From: an uncultured Parachlamydiaceae bacterium
Lineage (GTDB): Bacteria > Chlamydiota > Chlamydiia > Chlamydiales > Parachlamydiaceae
Reading direction: 5' to 3'
NCBI GenBank assembly: GCA_963752155.1
Contig: CAVVXH010000012.1
Span: 1-64,000, forward strand
Length of the DNA stretch: 64,000 nucleotides
Part shown: positions 26,101-35,100 of the stretch, one piece after another
Position numbering within the stretch: the stretch's first letter is position 1
Layout of the letters: each line of letters begins with the position of its first letter
Program-made: the position numbers

Positions 26101-29100
26101 AATGGACTGAAACAACTCGTAGTGTAACAACAGGTCAAAGAAGCGTACAGTTCTATAAAATGATTTTTAAAGAAAGTCGCCAAAAAATTCTCGATGCCAC
26201 TTGCAACGTCGATCTTTTAGAACTCTTAAAAGCTTTACGCTTACAAATCTCTAGAGATGAAAATGTCCCTCCTTTTGGTGTGTTTTCCGATCGTTCTTTA
26301 ATTGAAATGGCCACTTATTTTCCTATGGACGAGGAAGCCTTTTTAAAAATTAATGGGGTGGGTCGGTATAAACTCGAGACGTATGGCGAGCGATTCTTAA
26401 AAGCCATTAAAGAGTTTTGCCAAATTCACCAGATCGTCCAAAGTAAATTGTTAGAAACCGTGAATAAGCCAATTCAATCTAACAATAAAAATATACAAAA
26501 ACCAGATTGTTTAACCCCATCGCAAAGAATCTCTTTGGATCTCTTTTTGCAGAAAAAAAGCTTAGAGGAGATTTCTCACATTCGAGGGTTGGCTATAAGT
26601 ACAATTCTAGAACATGTCACGCAAGGCATTCGGTTGGAAGAGGCTGGAACTTCAATCGACATCTCCCATCTAATTTCTTCAGAGCTTCATCAGACAATCT
26701 TAAAGGTCATTCAAGAGGTCGGCGGCGAACTTTTAAAGCCTTTTAAAGAAAAGTTACCTCCGGAAATCACCTATGATCAGATTCGCCTAGTATTCGCTGT
26801 AACTAGAGGAAAGGAAAAAAAAAATTTGTAGTCTTGAATTTCCTATCCTAAATCAAAATTTCATTTATTTTTTGCTTACACCCGCAAACAAAATAACTAT
26901 TTTTGCAATTGCAAAAAAAGTCTTGCAGTTATTAAACTTTGTTAAAAACTATGTGAGACAGATAAGCAAAAAAGGAGGGCTCTAGTGGAACCAGCTATAA
27001 AAGTAACCGCTCCAATGCCTGAACTACAACCATTTCTTCCAAACCCGGATACCCCCTGGATGGTTAGTGCTGGACTCTTTCAGAGGGTACAGGCAGCAAA
27101 TGACGTAGGAGGCTACAAAAAGTGCCCAATCAACAGTAGTGATCCCGAATGGGCATTTATTCTTCGTTACTTTAACTGGCAAAAACCCCATAATCGCTGC
27201 ATCAAAAATGCTTACTGCATCCATAATCCAAGAGCCACCCAACAATTTGAGGGATCCATTCCAGGTTTAGAACAAGAAGCCGCCAACCCCTTCTTTGCAC
27301 CCAAATGGCAGCAGGAGGAAGATCTTCCATTGAGGCAAAAAGTCAACCAGCGCTGGCAAACCATGACGGCTCCTTATTCGCCATTTATTATTCCTGGATC
27401 CAATAAAAGAAAAGATATCTACCAAAATGTAAAAGTCCTCCCTCTATGGCATGGCACTAAAGCTGCCATCTGCAATTCCATTTGCCAAACAGGTTTTGCC
27501 TATTTCGGCAAACATCAACTCATTAAGGGAGGAACTAAAAAAGATCAAAATACAGATGTAGGCTATTTCGGTAGCGGCATTTATTTTTCCAATAGCGCAA
27601 GCTATGGGGCAGATATCTATAGCGATGGTAACATCTTCCTTGCTTGGGTTTCCATGCGCGACCCCTATCCTGTAGTCGCCAATGTAGCATGCAGACCCCC
27701 AAATAAGCCCAAAGATATGGAGAAACTCGAAGGACTCGGCGCCTATCTAAACTATAATGCTCACTATATTCCCGTCATCTCGATCAATCCAGCCAACAAA
27801 TCATGTGCAGTCTACTATCCTTGTAGCACCAACCAAGAACCGATGTGTGATGAAATTGTCGTTTTTCAAAAATCTCAAACACTTCCCAGATTTTGGCTAG
27901 AGTTAGATATTGAGCTTCCAAAAAACCCCACAGAAGCGAAAGCTACGATAGGAACCCTGCTCCAAAAAGTATTAGACCTGATTGAATCTGAAGAGGTCAA
28001 ACAAGACCCAAATCTAATCAAGATACTCACAGAGAAGGCCAACATTCTGATTATCTTAGACTCCAACCAAACCATACCAGCTCAAGAGCAGGAATTTTGT
28101 CTCTGGGCTATGCAGCTACTCGATCAAACCGGCAAAGTCAGAAACTTTGTTGGTAAAAAACTTCTTGGAATGCAAGCAACATCACCTATTCAACAAGTTC
28201 CAAGCAATAGCGGTTACGTCCTTAAAACAGAAACAGTTACAAATAAGTCGGCTTCATTGGCTTTAAAGCCATTACCTCCAAACCCCTCGGAACAAGCAGA
28301 AGCGATGTACGATTACACCAGTCAAGATGACAATATGTTATCCTTCAAAAGAGGAGATCAAATCAACATACTACAAAAAACAGGAGATTGGTGGATGGGG
28401 GAATTAAAGGGGAAGAGAGGTTATGTTCCTTCTAATTTTGTCCAATTAGTCCGGCCCCGACTTCCCACGCTTCCACAAAAGTCTGTTTCACCTAAAGTAC
28501 AAGTCGTTCATCTGCCAAGCAAATGTACCCAAACACTGAAGGGACATTGTGTGAATGCCCTAGTCCAGCTTGCCGATGGGACCTTGGCTAGTGGATCCGA
28601 TGATCAGACTATCATGCTTTGGCAATAGATTAGGAACATTGTATGGGCGCTTTCTAGTTGACAAAAGATCAACCTTAGCCCGAGTAGGAGGGAATATGTA
28701 GATGAAAGCAAGGGTGTCCGAAGAAACCGTGTGAGGTAGCATAACAATTGAATACAACGTGTCATAAACGGCCAATGAGGAGGCTAAAGCAAGGATGATT
28801 AAAGACGATTAAAAGTCTCCGTTCAGATTTTAAATGGCGTCTTGCGTTTTTCAATTATCACGCAAATTTTGGCAATTTCTGCTAATTTGGGTATAAACAA
28901 AGGAAATTTTGTAAAGAGTTTGCATCTTGCCATTAGTGCCTGGCCTGGGAGAAACGAAACAACGTTTTTCGACCAAAACCGTGCCATTTCTTCCCCCCAT
29001 TTCCGGTTCCAAAATACGTGACTTCTAATTAAGTATGCACCCCTGATTATAACATCCAAAAACTTTTTGGAGTGCTGTGGGCTCTGCCACAGCGCGTGAA

Positions 29101-32100: not shown

Positions 32101-35100
32101 AGCTTGCTGATGGGACCTTGGCCAGTGGATCTAACGACAATAGCATCAAGCTGTGGGATCCTCTGTCTGGTTCCCTCAAACGCACCTTGCAAGAGCATAC
32201 AGATGGTGTGAATGCCCTCGTCCAGCTTGCCGATGGGACCTTGGCCAGTGGTTCTTCTGACAAGACCATCAAGCTTTGGCAATAGATTAGGAACATTGTA
32301 TGGGCGCTTTCTAGTTGACAAAAGATCAACCTTAGCCCGAGTAGGAGAGAATATGTAGATGAAAGCAAGAGTGTCCGAAAAAACCGAGTGAGGCAGCATA
32401 ACAATTGAATACAAGGTGTCATAAACGGCCAATGAGGAATCTAAAGCAAGAATGATTAAAGACGATTAAAAGTCTCCCTTCAGATTTTAAATGGCGTCTT
32501 GCGTTTTTCAATTATCACGCAAATTTTGGCAATTTCTGCTTACGCAAATGTCAGAATATCAGGTCAGGCATGGGGAGAAACGAAACGGATCCAAAATACG
32601 TGACTTCTAATTTAGTATGCACCCCTGATTATAACATCCAAAAACTTTTTGGAGCCCTCAGCGACCAGCGGCGCGCTAATATCAAGAAGTAAACTCAAAA
32701 GCTTACTCAGAAGTGCTGTGGGCTCTGCCACAGCGCGTGAAGAAGGTTTAGATCATAAATCATGCAATTATGGCAAAGGTTTTGTTGTTTTACAAATCCT
32801 TTCCTGACATACATTTATGGTCTGAATGAAGCTACGAGTAGGAGGCCTGTCATAAAGCGAGACAACATCCTATAATTTTTAATTGCATACTTTATGATTT
32901 AAACCTTCTTCACGCGCTGTGGCAGAGCCCACAGCACTCCAAAAAGTTTTTGGATGTTATAATCAGGGGTGCATACTTAATTAGAAGTCACGTATTTTGG
33001 ATCCGGAAATGGGGGGAAGAAATGGCAAGGTTTTGGTCGAACAACATCGTTCCATTAATGTGGATCTATTTCAAGTTGACTCGATAAAAATTTTATTGTT
33101 AGAAACAGTAGGGACAGTGAATTGAGCAATCGTGTAGATGTAGTCCTTAGAGATATGCTGCGTGAGAAAATAGCTACATCCTTGATGATTTACGGTATGG
33201 GTATCTAAGCTAGATGGATCGATGTGGATTTTTAAAACTTCAGCAAGCCCTTTACCTTGCAACTTAGCAATCGATTCTTTTATCGTCCAGAGCTTGTAGA
33301 AGGCTTCTGAGCCGTTTTGTTCAACATACGCGATTTCATCTGAAGAATAATAATGATTCGCTAGCTTTAAAAAATTTCTCTTTATACTTAAATCTTCGAG
33401 GTCGATTCCTGCAGGATTTGTATCTGGAGATATAAGAACAGCAATCCATAAACCTGAATGGCTGAGGGTGATTTGTAAGGGAATTTTCTGTTGCCGGGGG
33501 GGAAGAATATAGGGCTCTCCCGATTCCAAATGTTGAATTGTGGTTAATTTAGCATCGTGCATAGATAGTAGATCGTTTTTGATGAGTAGATCTCTAGTTA
33601 GAGCTAAAGCACAGATTCGACGAGTCGCCTGAGTAGGACGTGTCGATGATAGATCAGAAATGTTGAATGTGTTGACATGAGATTCTAGAAGAATTTGCAT
33701 TTCAGGGGAGTTTATTTTGAGAATTGAAAGGTGCATTGTCTATAATGGTGTGATTAGGGTACGAAGTATAGGAAAAATTAAACGCAAAGGCCCAAAGGCA
33801 CAAAGAGCACAAAGAGATCTTACATGTAAAGAGATTCTTAGCGTAAGATCTCTTTGTGCTCTTTGTGCCTTTGGGCCTTTGCGTTTAATTTTTCTTAGCA
33901 TTCCGCATCCGTTGATTTTGTTATTCTTGCCCAGGTTCTTAGCTAGGAACGTCTCCACAAAGTTCCTCAGGAGGTCGCCATTTCTTTGGAAGCTGAGGAA
34001 GTTGAAATGAGTTGAATGCATAAGCATTCCGTTTTCCCGTATTCTGTCCAGTAATTTCAAAAGAAAGCCCTCCCATGAGTTTATTTCTAAACTCGGGAAT
34101 TTTTTCACTTTTTTTTGCAGCGCTTCTGGCAAGAGCATTACAGGCTTCTGCACCGGTTCTATCTTTTCCACTTTTGCAACTAATACCCCTAGCTCCTCCA
34201 AGGACTTTAACTGCATCTGCAACGAGATCAACACCATCAATATCTTTTCCTTTACGAGTTCCACTCTCTGAATAGTGTGTGATTAAAGCTACAATGGCAG
34301 GATGATCTAGCATGTTCCTTTTTTTTGCAGCTTCAAGTAAATTTTTAATTCCAGCTTTATTGACTTTATCTTGATAGGTTTCGGTATCATCCGAAGTCAA
34401 CAAATGACCAAATGTTTGCGTTTCGTTAACACCTTGGGCTAAAACAATTTGATTAACTGCCAGGAGGCCTTTAGGCAATTGATCTTTAGGAACCTGAGCT
34501 GGATCAACAAATACCATCATGATAAATTTTCCTGTTTCTTTTCCATCGTTACCTATTTCCTTAGTCACATTTTGATGTTCAGTTGGATCATGGCTTAATT
34601 GGATTTTGATATTTTCATTAATAAAAGGTAAAGCCCCATTAGCATCTTCGATCATGGCCTTTTCACTACGATCTTGATCGCTCACAAATGTTTGTTCGAC
34701 AAGTAAAAATTCGCCTGAAGTTATTGATTGCTTTATAGCCTCTGGATTATTTGCAATTTGATTTTGTATTTGAAGAGCTATTTTTGGTAGAAAAGAAGCT
34801 GTGATCAAATGTTCCCGTATTTTGACCTCTTCTTGGAGCTGATCTATTTTACTTTGAGCATTCTTCATCGATCGGGCAGTGTCGAGTTCAACTTTGAGCA
34901 TTTCCAGTCCTGGTTTACCTCGGCCATGAGTGCAAGGAATTCCCGAACGAACGATTGAACCAATAGTTTCTCCATTTCTACTGACTTCATGTAGGCTCAA
35001 ATTAATCGTTGTCCCTTGAACTTCGTTTTGATCCTTTAAGGGACTTAGGCGACGAGCTGGGCCATCTTCAGGATTACATTCTTTATTATAATTAATTTGA

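Follow-up and report, generated by a model that had tools for sequence, protein, structure and literature searches.

The window, a 64,000-nt stretch of a contig from an uncultured Parachlamydiaceae bacterium, carries two tandem genes that each join a PARP-like head to an SH3 domain and WD40 repeats. We think it probable, with moderate confidence, that they specify a recently duplicated pair of PARP-type (H-Y-E) ADP-ribosyltransferases that would be delivered to the host and dock there by means of the SH3 domain and propeller.

The duplicated gene pair

Two PARP/SH3/WD40 ORFs are confirmed on the plus strand at the positions given in the initial annotation. The features of the locus are as follows.

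26889..26984, + strand: upstream leader of the short copy, with a perfect palindrome (26896-26921) inside; inverted repeat I8
26985..28628, + strand: short copy, 547 aa, GTG start, ORF intact, terminal LWQ-stop; in order, PARP-like head, helical linker, Pro-rich stretch, SH3 and a single WD40 blade
26985..27914, + strand: short-copy ADP-ribosyltransferase domain of PARP type, aa 1-310; it shares 96% identity with the long-copy head that was modelled
28290..28454, + strand: SH3 of the short copy (aa 436-490), canonical (AMYDY, DWW, VPSNF)
28500..28625, + strand: sole WD40 blade of the short copy, an in-frame join of the front half of blade 1 with the back half of blade 8
28940..29450, strand not applicable: palindromic dispersed repeat, about 510 nt, MITE-like, 3' of the short copy; inverted repeats I2 and I6
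29664..29759, + strand: upstream leader of the long copy, repeating the leader and palindrome found before the short copy; I8
29760..32285, + strand: long copy, 841 aa, ATG start, ORF intact, terminal LWQ-stop; same order, ending in an eight-blade WD40 propeller
29760..30689, + strand: long-copy ADP-ribosyltransferase domain of PARP type, aa 1-310, from AlphaFold2, Foldseek, VIA and the triad
30225-30227, 30357-30359 and 30627-30629, + strand: codons of the long-copy triad H156, Y200 and E290
30690..31064, + strand: helical linker of the long copy reaching about aa 400, followed by a Pro-rich stretch with KPLPPNP directly before the SH3
31065..31229, + strand: SH3 of the long copy (aa 436-490), diverged (KRED, RDWRR)
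31275..32282, + strand: eight WD40 blades of the long copy, 41-46 aa each (Pfam; 123-nt repeat family D1)
32586..33056, strand not applicable: second, partial copy of the palindromic repeat, 3' of the long copy; D4-D8, I1, I3 and I5

Aligned over 548 positions, the copies share 94% identity. Identity between them begins about 96 nt 5' of the start codon, within direct repeat D2 (26889-27188 = 29664-29963, 97%), and a further direct repeat, D3, pairs 28546-28845 with 32203-32502 (93%). The short copy had been described as truncated, but it ends in the same LWQ-stop as its neighbour, and the size difference corresponds to 294 codons lost in frame within the WD40 array. A hairpin repeat had likewise been noted behind the short copy; it is present there but is not restricted to that copy, since the long copy is followed by one too. 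The repeat of about 510 nt is strongly palindromic (DNA fold -227.7 kcal/mol, z -35) and has 141 matches across the contigs of the genome (both strands counted). We read the history as a recent tandem duplication of a unit consisting of the gene plus this repeat, and divergence since then amounts to a dS of about 0.05.

The combination of SH3, PARP and WD40 looks eukaryotic, and G+C, about 0.39 in the flanks, climbs to 0.49 across the WD40 array, as if DNA of an amoeba host or some other contaminant had been mis-assembled onto a bacterial contig. This is highly improbable, given that both ORFs are uninterrupted and have a purine-rich stretch (GGAGG/GGAAGG) 5 nt upstream of the start codon, that the pair is flanked by bacterial genes (recQ, phosphopantetheinyl transferase and methyltransferase) and lies beside a repeat scattered over the contigs of this genome, and that every relative found is on a chlamydia-like bacterial contig, some of them megabase-sized.

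The PARP-type head

The head, initially annotated as PARP-like with an H-Y-E set, proved on modelling and alignment to be folded as a genuine ADP-ribosyltransferase of PARP type and to conserve the triad. Pfam detects PARP at residues 152-307 of the long copy (34.4 bits against a cut-off of 26.7, head scanned alone) and in the short copy (E 1.5e-7, 31.5 bits). The AlphaFold2 model of the long-copy head is of good quality (pLDDT 88.7, pTM 0.87), apart from a low-confidence loop at aa 175-190, and every top Foldseek match to it is a PARP catalytic domain (E 1.7e-11, probability 1.00). VIA aligned 164-193 residues, from residue 26 or 42 of the model to 310, with PARP12, 15, 14, 10, 13 and tankyrase (Z 17-18.4, rmsd 1.9-2.8 A), the best being PARP12 (Z 18.4, rmsd 2.2 A, 168/181 residues, model range 42-310). 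At the sequence level the resemblance to solved PARPs is marginal (best E 0.37 for a single-sequence query and 0.009 for a profile), so the assignment is based on the Pfam profile together with the motifs and the predicted fold. Each copy has all three triad residues, and among 55 aligned relatives H156 is conserved in 52, and Y200 and E290 in all 55. From the model, residues from about 26 to 310 are predicted to form an NAD+-binding PARP-type catalytic domain with a conserved H-Y-E set. E290 is the putative PARP catalytic glutamate, as judged from the motif register, the Pfam and VIA ranges spanning it, and the PARP1 sequence.

In fold, the head matches over nearly the whole domain those eukaryotic PARPs that lack the helical regulatory domain (PARP12, 15, 14, 10 and tankyrase 1/2). 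It shares with eukaryotic PARPs the HG[ST] and GxGxYF motifs and a strand led by Glu, and its N-terminal motif matches PARP14 in the profile comparison. The third triad residue is Glu, as in tankyrase and PARP1-4, whereas the nearest structural neighbours, PARP10/12/14/15, have H-Y-I/L. Identity with eukaryotic PARPs is only 13-23%, about 100 residues are inserted, and the protein is bacterial and lacks the macro, WWE, zinc-finger and SAM partners of those enzymes.

Bacterial PARP-related proteins have been predicted before: in two descriptions from 2012, Tox-ART-PARP of Streptomyces and LDG_5757 of Legionella drancourtii, itself an intracellular parasite of amoebae, are given as toxins or effectors (Zhang et al. 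2012, PMC3482391; Aravind et al. 2012, PMC3417536). Like the chlamydial head, these are bacterial H-Y-E ARTs of the PARP clade proposed to act on another cell, but as described there they are C-terminal toxin modules or single cases, while the chlamydial ART is N-terminal and is what the several hundred clusters of one family have in common. The initial claim of a new bacterial H-Y-E PARP effector family is thus narrowed, in that the chlamydial family appears undescribed but the Streptomyces and Legionella cases precede it.

SH3 domain, propeller and selection

Between head and SH3 lies a linker for which the AlphaFold2 model gives a helix at 315-329 and the family consensus extends to about aa 400. 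As first proposed, the SH3 belongs to the eukaryotic SH3_1 type, both by Pfam (short copy, E 9.7e-15, 54.4 bits; long copy, residues 440-483, E 6.4e-11, 42.1 bits) and by PDB matches. The best single-domain PDB matches of the short-copy SH3 are those of Acanthamoeba and Entamoeba myosin IB (2drk/2drm and 6a9c/5xg9; 56 bits, E 2e-14), and it is 29/55 identical (hand count) to these amoebozoan class I myosin domains. Human intersectin-2 follows so closely (53.9 bits) that the difference is negligible. A relative from another chlamydial MAG, P0008, has an SH3 at the equivalent place (head 59% and SH3 62% identical; 34/55), closer than the myosin domains, and the SH3 is therefore older than this genome. 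With these comparisons the proposal that the domain was taken from the amoeba host is weakened, and an amoebal donor is only suggested. The domain had also been called the first SH3_1 of the phylum: a bona fide SH3_1 occurs in this genome alone among 400 scored Chlamydiota genomes, but the MAG of P0008 shares it.

Pfam finds eight WD40 stretches in the long copy (E 5.8e-64) and one in the short copy. The eight blades are near-identical and vary at a few fixed places, GHTxxVx and SxSxDx.

The two copies have changed unevenly. Over codons 150-455 the dN/dS between them is 0.03, against 0.83 for codons 2-149 and 1.09 for codons 456-520; the core shows 1 non-synonymous and 8 synonymous substitutions, and the remainder 25 and 6 (Fisher p 3e-4). 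Strong purifying selection acts on the catalytic core of both genes, while the N-terminal and SH3 regions are diverging. The SH3 domains differ at six of 55 residues, including conserved positions in the long copy (G457E, G467R, W470R). After duplication, one copy would have lost seven blades when blade 1 was joined in frame to blade 8, and kept a canonical SH3, and the other would have retained the propeller and altered conserved SH3 positions; we read this as a division of the two docking modules between the copies.

The same changes might instead mark a decaying locus, with the short copy a remnant and the long copy losing its SH3, or a head that is a catalytically dead scaffold. A single blade is too few for a propeller by itself, the SH3_1 score falls with the three substitutions, and interrupted housekeeping genes are numerous in the assembly, so that single-base errors are possible in both ORFs. 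Yet both frames are intact, the triad is nearly invariant across the family and the core has been conserved since duplication (dN/dS 0.03), and decay or loss of activity has only a slight chance of being correct. Judged from the dN/dS, both copies have been kept working.

A chlamydial family and its proposed role

A search with residues 1-330 returned 164 proteins at E<=1e-3 among 946 candidates, reproducing the large family with Ank, Sel1/TPR, LRR, WD40 and PF12252 tails. The family comprises 776 clusters at 50% identity and is present in 28/401 sampled Chlamydiota genomes; its 69 loci are all in chlamydia-like MAGs or genomes, and in the searches made it is confined to these, as first proposed. 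Paralogue bursts occur, with at least 17 of the listed proteins on one 511-kb contig (hand count of the matches listed). The picture of one head with swappable tails holds in that tails differ between close relatives, but 74 of 120 listed relatives also share a second conserved domain at the C terminus, about 210 aa long, whose fold is C-type-lectin/FGE-like; it is the commonest tail. No published description of a chlamydial PARP-head family was found in literature searches, and this sizeable family is apparently undescribed.

The head is internal in 12 of the 120 listed relatives, ten of which have it behind an N-terminal SidE_PDE domain (P0027, full domain, E 1.8e-40). SidE_PDE is known from Legionella effectors, and the order PDE before ART is also that of SidE (DUB-PDE-mART). 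The SidE ART, however, is of the R-S-E clade, unlike the H-Y-E head, and both genes studied here lack a PDE. Lineage-specific paralogue bursts with eukaryote-like interaction domains are shared with the expanded F-box, BTB and RING families with LRR of Parachlamydiaceae, which concern ubiquitination; the constant part of the PARP family is instead an ADP-ribosyltransferase, and a search listing for the paper describing them gives no occurrence of the word 'PARP' (Domman et al. 2014, PMC4209131).

Enzymatic heads joined to WD40/TPR/Ank arrays are established as typical of bacterial conflict systems (cf. PMC7159879), and an intrabacterial defence enzyme, for example in abortive infection, might use the propeller as sensor and the ADP-ribosyltransferase as executioner. 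Near-identical blades varying at few positions resemble diversifying sensors, and the gene adjoins a mobile palindromic repeat. Against this, no NTPase domain or partner gene accompanies the pair, PADLOC recognised neither copy, nor a canonical relative, the SH3 is eukaryotic in type, relatives carry SidE_PDE, and all family members found come from an obligately intracellular phylum; a defence role is improbable.

The protein is most likely sent into the host cell. The eukaryotic-type SH3_1, the limitation of the family to chlamydiae, its paralogue bursts and varied tails, SidE_PDE in ten relatives, sctV in the genome, and the next-but-one downstream gene, which resembles IpgD-type phosphoinositide phosphatases (Atlas 0.91), were counted for this. 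No signal peptide was seen by eye in the protein sequence. A same-genus genome (G133) has distant copies alone (45% identity), without SH3, which counts against the favoured reading.

The substrate of a secreted enzyme might also be other than protein, such as nucleic-acid ends or, by hydrolysis, host NAD+. The closest structural neighbours, PARP10, 14, 15 and 12 (Z ~18), are mono-transferases, some of which act on nucleic acids, including RNA/DNA ends, so a protein target is not assured, and H-Y-E by itself leaves the acceptor unfixed. SH3 and WD40 are nevertheless protein-docking modules, the tail seen most often in the family has a lectin-like binding fold, and in ten relatives the head is paired with SidE_PDE, a domain that in Legionella processes ADP-ribosylated ubiquitin (PMC13720258). 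A non-protein substrate is unlikely, though it deserves some weight. Under the favoured reading of host-directed ADP-ribosylation, the chlamydial type III secretion system would deliver the enzyme into a eukaryotic host. There it would bind host proteins through its SH3 and propeller, and its head may transfer ADP-ribose, as one unit or a chain, from NAD+ to these or to a neighbouring molecule.

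The tandem gene pair and its surroundings

The features of the window discussed here are as follows.

26985..28628 (+): short copy, 547 aa, GTG start
29760..32285 (+): long copy, 841 aa, ATG start
26896-26921 and 29671-29696: perfect palindrome ACTATTTTTGCAATTGCAAAAAAAGT, 64-89 nt upstream of both start codons, in the duplicated leader
28940-29450: palindromic element after the short copy, about 510 nt long, each arm about 190 nt
32586-33056: palindromic element, partial, after the long copy
33939..35948 (-): ORF of about 669 aa, about 1.65 kb beyond the stop codon of the long copy; no Pfam family
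20442-21155 and 23871-24638: further places where housekeeping genes look interrupted

Both ORFs were found where the initial annotation had placed them, and Pfam recovers its domain set. PARP (PF00644, cut-off 26.7 bits; profile positions 50-197 of 199) scores 34.4 bits over residues 152-307 of the long copy when the N-terminal catalytic part (the head) is scanned alone, and 31.5 bits in the short copy. SH3_1 (PF00018, cut-off 22.9 bits; profile positions 2-48 of 48) is matched at residues 440-483 of the long copy (42.1 bits, E 6.4e-11) and more strongly in the short copy (54.4 bits, E 9.7e-15), and there are eight WD40 stretches in the long copy and one in the short. The source genome (3.13 Mb, 22 contigs, completeness 80%) holds the head, and PF00644, in these two copies only.

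The two proteins are 94% identical over 548 aligned positions. The tandem duplication took in a whole unit, with identity beginning about 96 nt 5' of each start codon and extending about 800 nt downstream of the genes. Each duplicated unit includes one copy of the palindromic element, so this repeat may have mediated the duplication. The element is a dispersed, MITE-like repeat, with 141 matches across the genome (both strands counted) and, as single-stranded DNA, a predicted fold of -227.7 kcal/mol (z -35). The hairpin repeat reported after the short copy is thus present, but it is not specific to that gene, as the long copy also has one. The leader palindrome could be an operator or the remnant of a terminator; a promoter scan gave 11 sites against 11.6 expected, nothing above chance, and a terminator scan gave 5 against 7.8 expected.

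The short copy had been described as truncated, a view that must be abandoned: it ends in LWQ-stop like the long copy, and the 294 codons by which it is shorter are lost from inside the WD40 array. Its single blade joins the start of blade 1 to the end of blade 8, with a few further differences. In the relative P0006 there are eight blades too, and its alignment to the long copy runs the full length (47% over 835 positions), so the eight-blade form is the older one. The eight blades claimed for the long copy were confirmed as eight units of 41-46 aa, enough for a closed propeller, which the one blade of the short copy could not form. Successive 300-nt repeat windows of the array share 63-90% DNA identity, and the blades differ mainly at the residues after GHT (x-x-V-x) and within S-x-S-x-D-x, which in WD40 propellers lie along the top face. 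Such a distribution, together with the loss of blades in the short copy, points to frequent recombination within the array.

The copies were compared over a colinear stretch of 520 codons, in which 14 codons differ synonymously and 27 non-synonymously, the latter including the GTG/ATG start; dS is about 0.05 (Nei-Gojobori).

dN/dS between the two copies by codon range
Codons 2-149: 0.83
Codons 150-455: 0.03
Codons 456-520: 1.09

The core (codons 150-455) carries one non-synonymous and eight synonymous changes, compared with 25 and 6 elsewhere (Fisher p 3e-4). Two regions hold most of the changes: the N-terminal third, and the part that runs from the middle of the SH3 domain through the stretch behind it. 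Since the core is nearly without non-synonymous change, both copies appear to have retained a working catalytic half and linker. We infer a division of labour, in which one copy supplies head and SH3 and the other head and propeller. The pair is a small natural experiment, setting a head with a good SH3 and no propeller against a head with an altered SH3 and a propeller.

The genes lie among housekeeping genes, preceded by recQ and followed by genes for a phosphopantetheinyl transferase (ACPS) and a methyltransferase, and by mfd. Of these, recQ is also present in a genome of the same genus (G133) and in two other genomes (G115, G110), and nothing past recQ in G133 or G115 matched the window. 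The ORF at 33939-35948 encodes CKSGKDRTG near its C-terminus, presumably the CX5R-type active-site motif of IpgD/SopB and inositol 4-phosphatases, and the closest Atlas clusters that bear a name are inositol phosphatases with an IpgD domain (0.91, 184-187 shared features), which is a lead and no more. The product is a possible second effector directed at the host. That the genome encodes a type III secretion apparatus is indicated by sctV (FHIPEP, 650.8 bits; G000:C10:589611-591652), a gene with one in-frame TGA and a shifted end in this assembly. Searches with PADLOC-DB 2.0, a library of described systems only, returned no family for either copy, for the 33939-35948 protein or for the relative P0002. 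Elsewhere in the window, a 221-aa ORF at 16648-17313 (-) matches DUF6531 (E 4.7e-8), a domain that accompanies RHS-type toxins.

Several housekeeping genes look interrupted. For example, mfd is split into two ORFs (38932-42203), an RNB-domain ORF matches its profile at positions 8-219 of 326 and no further, and a LeuS-like reading, made by eye, is confined to a 255-aa C-terminal piece. Together with the 80% completeness this suggests that either the assembly contains indel errors or the genes are decaying. A look for sequencing runs that carry the sequence turned up none of RNA; one DNA run contained 0.20 of the sequence words, and the contigs built from it were short (66-336 nt) and of low depth. 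Contamination with host DNA was considered as the source of the genes and rejected.

The PARP-type head and the SH3 domain

An alignment of 55 family members served to build an AlphaFold2 model that covers residues 1-330 (mean pLDDT 88.7, pTM 0.87; low confidence at the very N-terminus, given as residues 1-3 or as the first 10, and at 175-190). When the model was submitted to Foldseek, all top matches were PARP catalytic domains (best E 1.7e-11, probability 1.00), and VIA-align superposed it on PARP12 with Z 18.4 and an rmsd of 2.2 Å (168 of 181 residues aligned) and on PARP15, 14, 10, 13 and the tankyrases with Z 17-18. The head is accordingly modelled as an ART fold of the PARP type. Structural matches run from residue 26 or 42 to about 310, so that nearly the whole head is predicted to be a single domain of the PARP type into which about 100 residues are inserted, rather than a 155-residue core preceded by an N-terminal part of unknown kind. 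By sequence the relationship is distant: against the sequences of solved structures, the best E was 0.37 for the single sequence and 0.009 for the family profile, the latter with the N-terminal motif of PARP14. No NCBIfam family exceeded its cut-off, and a match to methylglyoxal synthase (25 bits, cut-off 84) was discarded.

Both copies carry WHGT156, GSGIYF200 and DE290IVVF, corresponding to the His of HG[ST], the Tyr of GxGxYF and the Glu at the head of a strand. Y200 and E290 are each found in 55/55 aligned relatives and H156 in 52/55 (Q in two, Y in one). In the model, E290 begins strand 288-293, after a loop, and we take the run E-I-V-V-F-Q-x-x-Q to be in register with the PARP1 motif. 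The identification of E290 as the probable equivalent of the PARP catalytic Glu rests on this register and on the alignments that span it. Given the predicted fold, an H-Y-E set that is invariant and the signs of purifying selection described above, it is very likely that the proteins are active NAD+-using transferases.

The putative ligand-binding motifs of an SH3 domain (ALYDY, the first Trp of WW and PxNY) are present in both copies. The short copy reads AMYDY, DWW and VPSNF; in the long copy AMYDY, VPSNF and the first Trp are retained alongside the changes G457E, G467R and W470R. Judged against P0008, a partial protein from another Parachlamydiaceae MAG, these three are derived changes at conserved SH3 places, at which the short copy is unchanged. 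KPLPPNP lies just N-terminal of the SH3 in both copies and PTLPQK just C-terminal of it in the short copy only; that they serve as internal SH3 ligands is speculation.

With the SH3 of the short copy, 450 PDB sequences were retrieved at E<=1e-3, and the best 60 of the 450 are all eukaryotic. The best single-domain matches listed are Acanthamoeba myosin IB (56.4 and 56.0 bits) and Entamoeba myosin IB (56.4 and 56.3 bits), followed by intersectin-2 (53.9), intersectin-1 (50.7) and Crk (50.3). A word-index search with residues 430-492 gave two candidates only: one was the query protein, the other a 702-aa protein with several SH3 domains that by eye resembles an animal adaptor. The initial annotation derived the domain from the amoeba host; a eukaryotic source is well supported, but with myosin IB at 56.4 and intersectin-2 at 53.9 bits amoebae as the donor are no more than a lead.

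Scores were obtained for 400 species genomes of Chlamydiota, though not for one more; SH3_1 was matched at E<=1e-3 in six of the 400 and above the cut-off in three. The matches in two of them (G093 and G055) were set aside as proteins with TPR and the bacterial SH3_3, which fall below the SH3_1 cut-off on a whole-ORF scan, and bona fide SH3_1 was found in the source genome only, among the Chlamydiota genomes searched. The domain had been put forward as the first of its type in the phylum; it is unique among these genomes, but P0008 carries one as well. In P0008 the SH3 stands in the same place, and that of the short copy shares 34/55 residues with it and, by hand count, 29/55 with Acanthamoeba myosin IB, which argues for a single capture before the lineages of the window and P0008 split.

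A large family with varied tails

The claim that the head belongs to a large family was upheld. When 1.84 billion cluster representatives were searched in full with HMMER, 776 proteins scored E<=1e-3, of which 498 reached <=1e-10 and 202 <=1e-30, and the head occurs in 28/401 sampled Chlamydiota genomes (20/211 genera), often in multiple copies. One of them, G147, has 29 head candidates. The head copies in the genome of the same genus are only 45% identical to those of the window, and the best matches (61-62%) are in other families. A scan of 185,579 species genomes with two family-specific motifs, a design that cannot detect distant PARP-like proteins, found 69 loci, all in MAGs labelled chlamydial, 'Verrucomicrobia' or unclassified except for one partial match in a 'Bacteroidia' bin. 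About 20 dispersed copies are present in one chlamydial MAG (contig of 2.59 Mb; loci L060-L080 and L086), most of them matching query residues 21-311 with 41-43% identity and equal match length, and could point to a burst of very recent date or to an association with some mobile element. In a Rhabdochlamydiaceae-like genome, a family member (L011:2576-3880, -) lies directly downstream of a gene that by eye is secretin-like (GspD/SctC-like).

The tails were counted by hand in the 120 relatives listed in the protein search.

Tails among the 120 relatives listed
Ank: 18
Sel1/TPR: 13
SidE_PDE: 10
WD40: 7
LRR: 5
SH3: 2

The head is N-terminal in 108/120, unlike the C-terminal toxin of polymorphic toxins, and internal in 12/120, ten of these behind SidE_PDE. 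Nor do the window genes have the layout of polymorphic toxins such as Tox-ART-PARP, with N-terminal trafficking region, C-terminal toxin and immunity gene; the neighbours are recQ, ACPS and methyltransferase genes, and no small ORF resembling an immunity gene had a family match.

A tree of heads was made by a quick search with SH-aLRT support only, on 120 rows comprising the two window heads and 118/120 of the listed proteins; the database entry of the short copy itself and one match under 250 residues were left out. P0006, which has WD40, and P0002-4, which have a lectin-like tail, form the sister group (97) of the window pair (100), and a nine-row clade (97) also includes P0008, with SH3 and a lectin-like tail, and P0005/P0007. 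Four architectures among nine close relatives show that tails are exchanged quickly.

This agrees in part with the proposal of one head with swappable tails: the tails do vary, but 74/120 listed relatives (within P0002-P0120) share a second conserved domain, C-terminal and about 210 aa long (for example, L011:514-1149, -). A Pfam scan of this domain gave no match and an Atlas search only unnamed clusters. Its model (pLDDT 95.6) had a best Foldseek E of 0.02 and aligns with the C-type-lectin/FGE fold at middling Z (PvdO 8.8, a Treponema DGR variable protein 8.7), with further structural matches to EgtB, an FGE paralogue, the C-terminal domain of Legionella Lcl and many animal C-type lectins. 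As modelled, then, it resembles C-type-lectin/FGE-fold proteins. The usual family member is head, linker and lectin-like domain; the two window genes are without the last and have the propeller instead.

A full SidE_PDE domain precedes the head in P0027 (E 1.8e-40, residues 19-205), P0030, P0032, P0036, P0037, P0042, P0045, P0052, P0085 and P0090, and these fall in one 12-row clade of the head tree, two members of which have no PDE. The pairing of PDE and ART is like that of Legionella SidE, with the difference that the head of the relatives is H-Y-E. PF12252 was not among the matches listed for the window proteins (25 of 36 families for the long copy), which are thus not of the SidE type.

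Relation to known effectors and significance

ADP-ribosylating effectors are well studied in Legionella and among the classical toxins. To our knowledge almost nothing has been reported on such effectors in chlamydiae, and the bacterial members of the PARP clade proper that we know of are rare and mostly uncharacterised. Literature searches found no account of a chlamydial PARP-like family or of its lectin-like tail, nor of any PARP-type head joined to SidE_PDE or any bacterial ART that carries SH3_1. The novelty claimed for a bacterial H-Y-E PARP effector family is therefore to be narrowed to a chlamydial family for which no description was found, because PARP-related toxin and effector domains have been described in bacteria since 2012, among them Tox-ART-PARP of Streptomyces and a Legionella drancourtii protein (PMC3482391 and PMC3417536), and PF00644 proteins are listed among known Legionella ARTs in PMC12522546.

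That the window proteins are secreted, host-directed transferases is somewhat favoured by the evidence. [quoted passage not shown] No hydrophobic signal peptide was seen by eye in the protein sequence. A much bolder and, in our judgement, improbable reading is that of an undescribed chlamydial family of true H-Y-E PARP enzymes injected into protists, with a constant head and exchangeable docking modules, in which a captured myosin-I-like SH3 would steer the window enzymes to the actin/endocytic machinery of the host and, in the SidE_PDE fusions, the PARP-type head would take, in a phosphoribosyl-linking reaction, the place that the R-S-E transferase has in Legionella SidE. If true, SidE_PDE with a PARP-type head would be an independent invention of phosphoribosyl-linking chemistry.

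The family is marked by an invariant H-Y-E, a lectin-like or repeat-type docking end, an occasional SidE_PDE and, in one lineage, a eukaryote-type SH3. It bears on the old idea that eukaryotic PARPs and bacterial effector ARTs have a common history (PMC3417536). With several hundred clusters, it would offer a direct handle on how environmental chlamydiae rewire their protist hosts.
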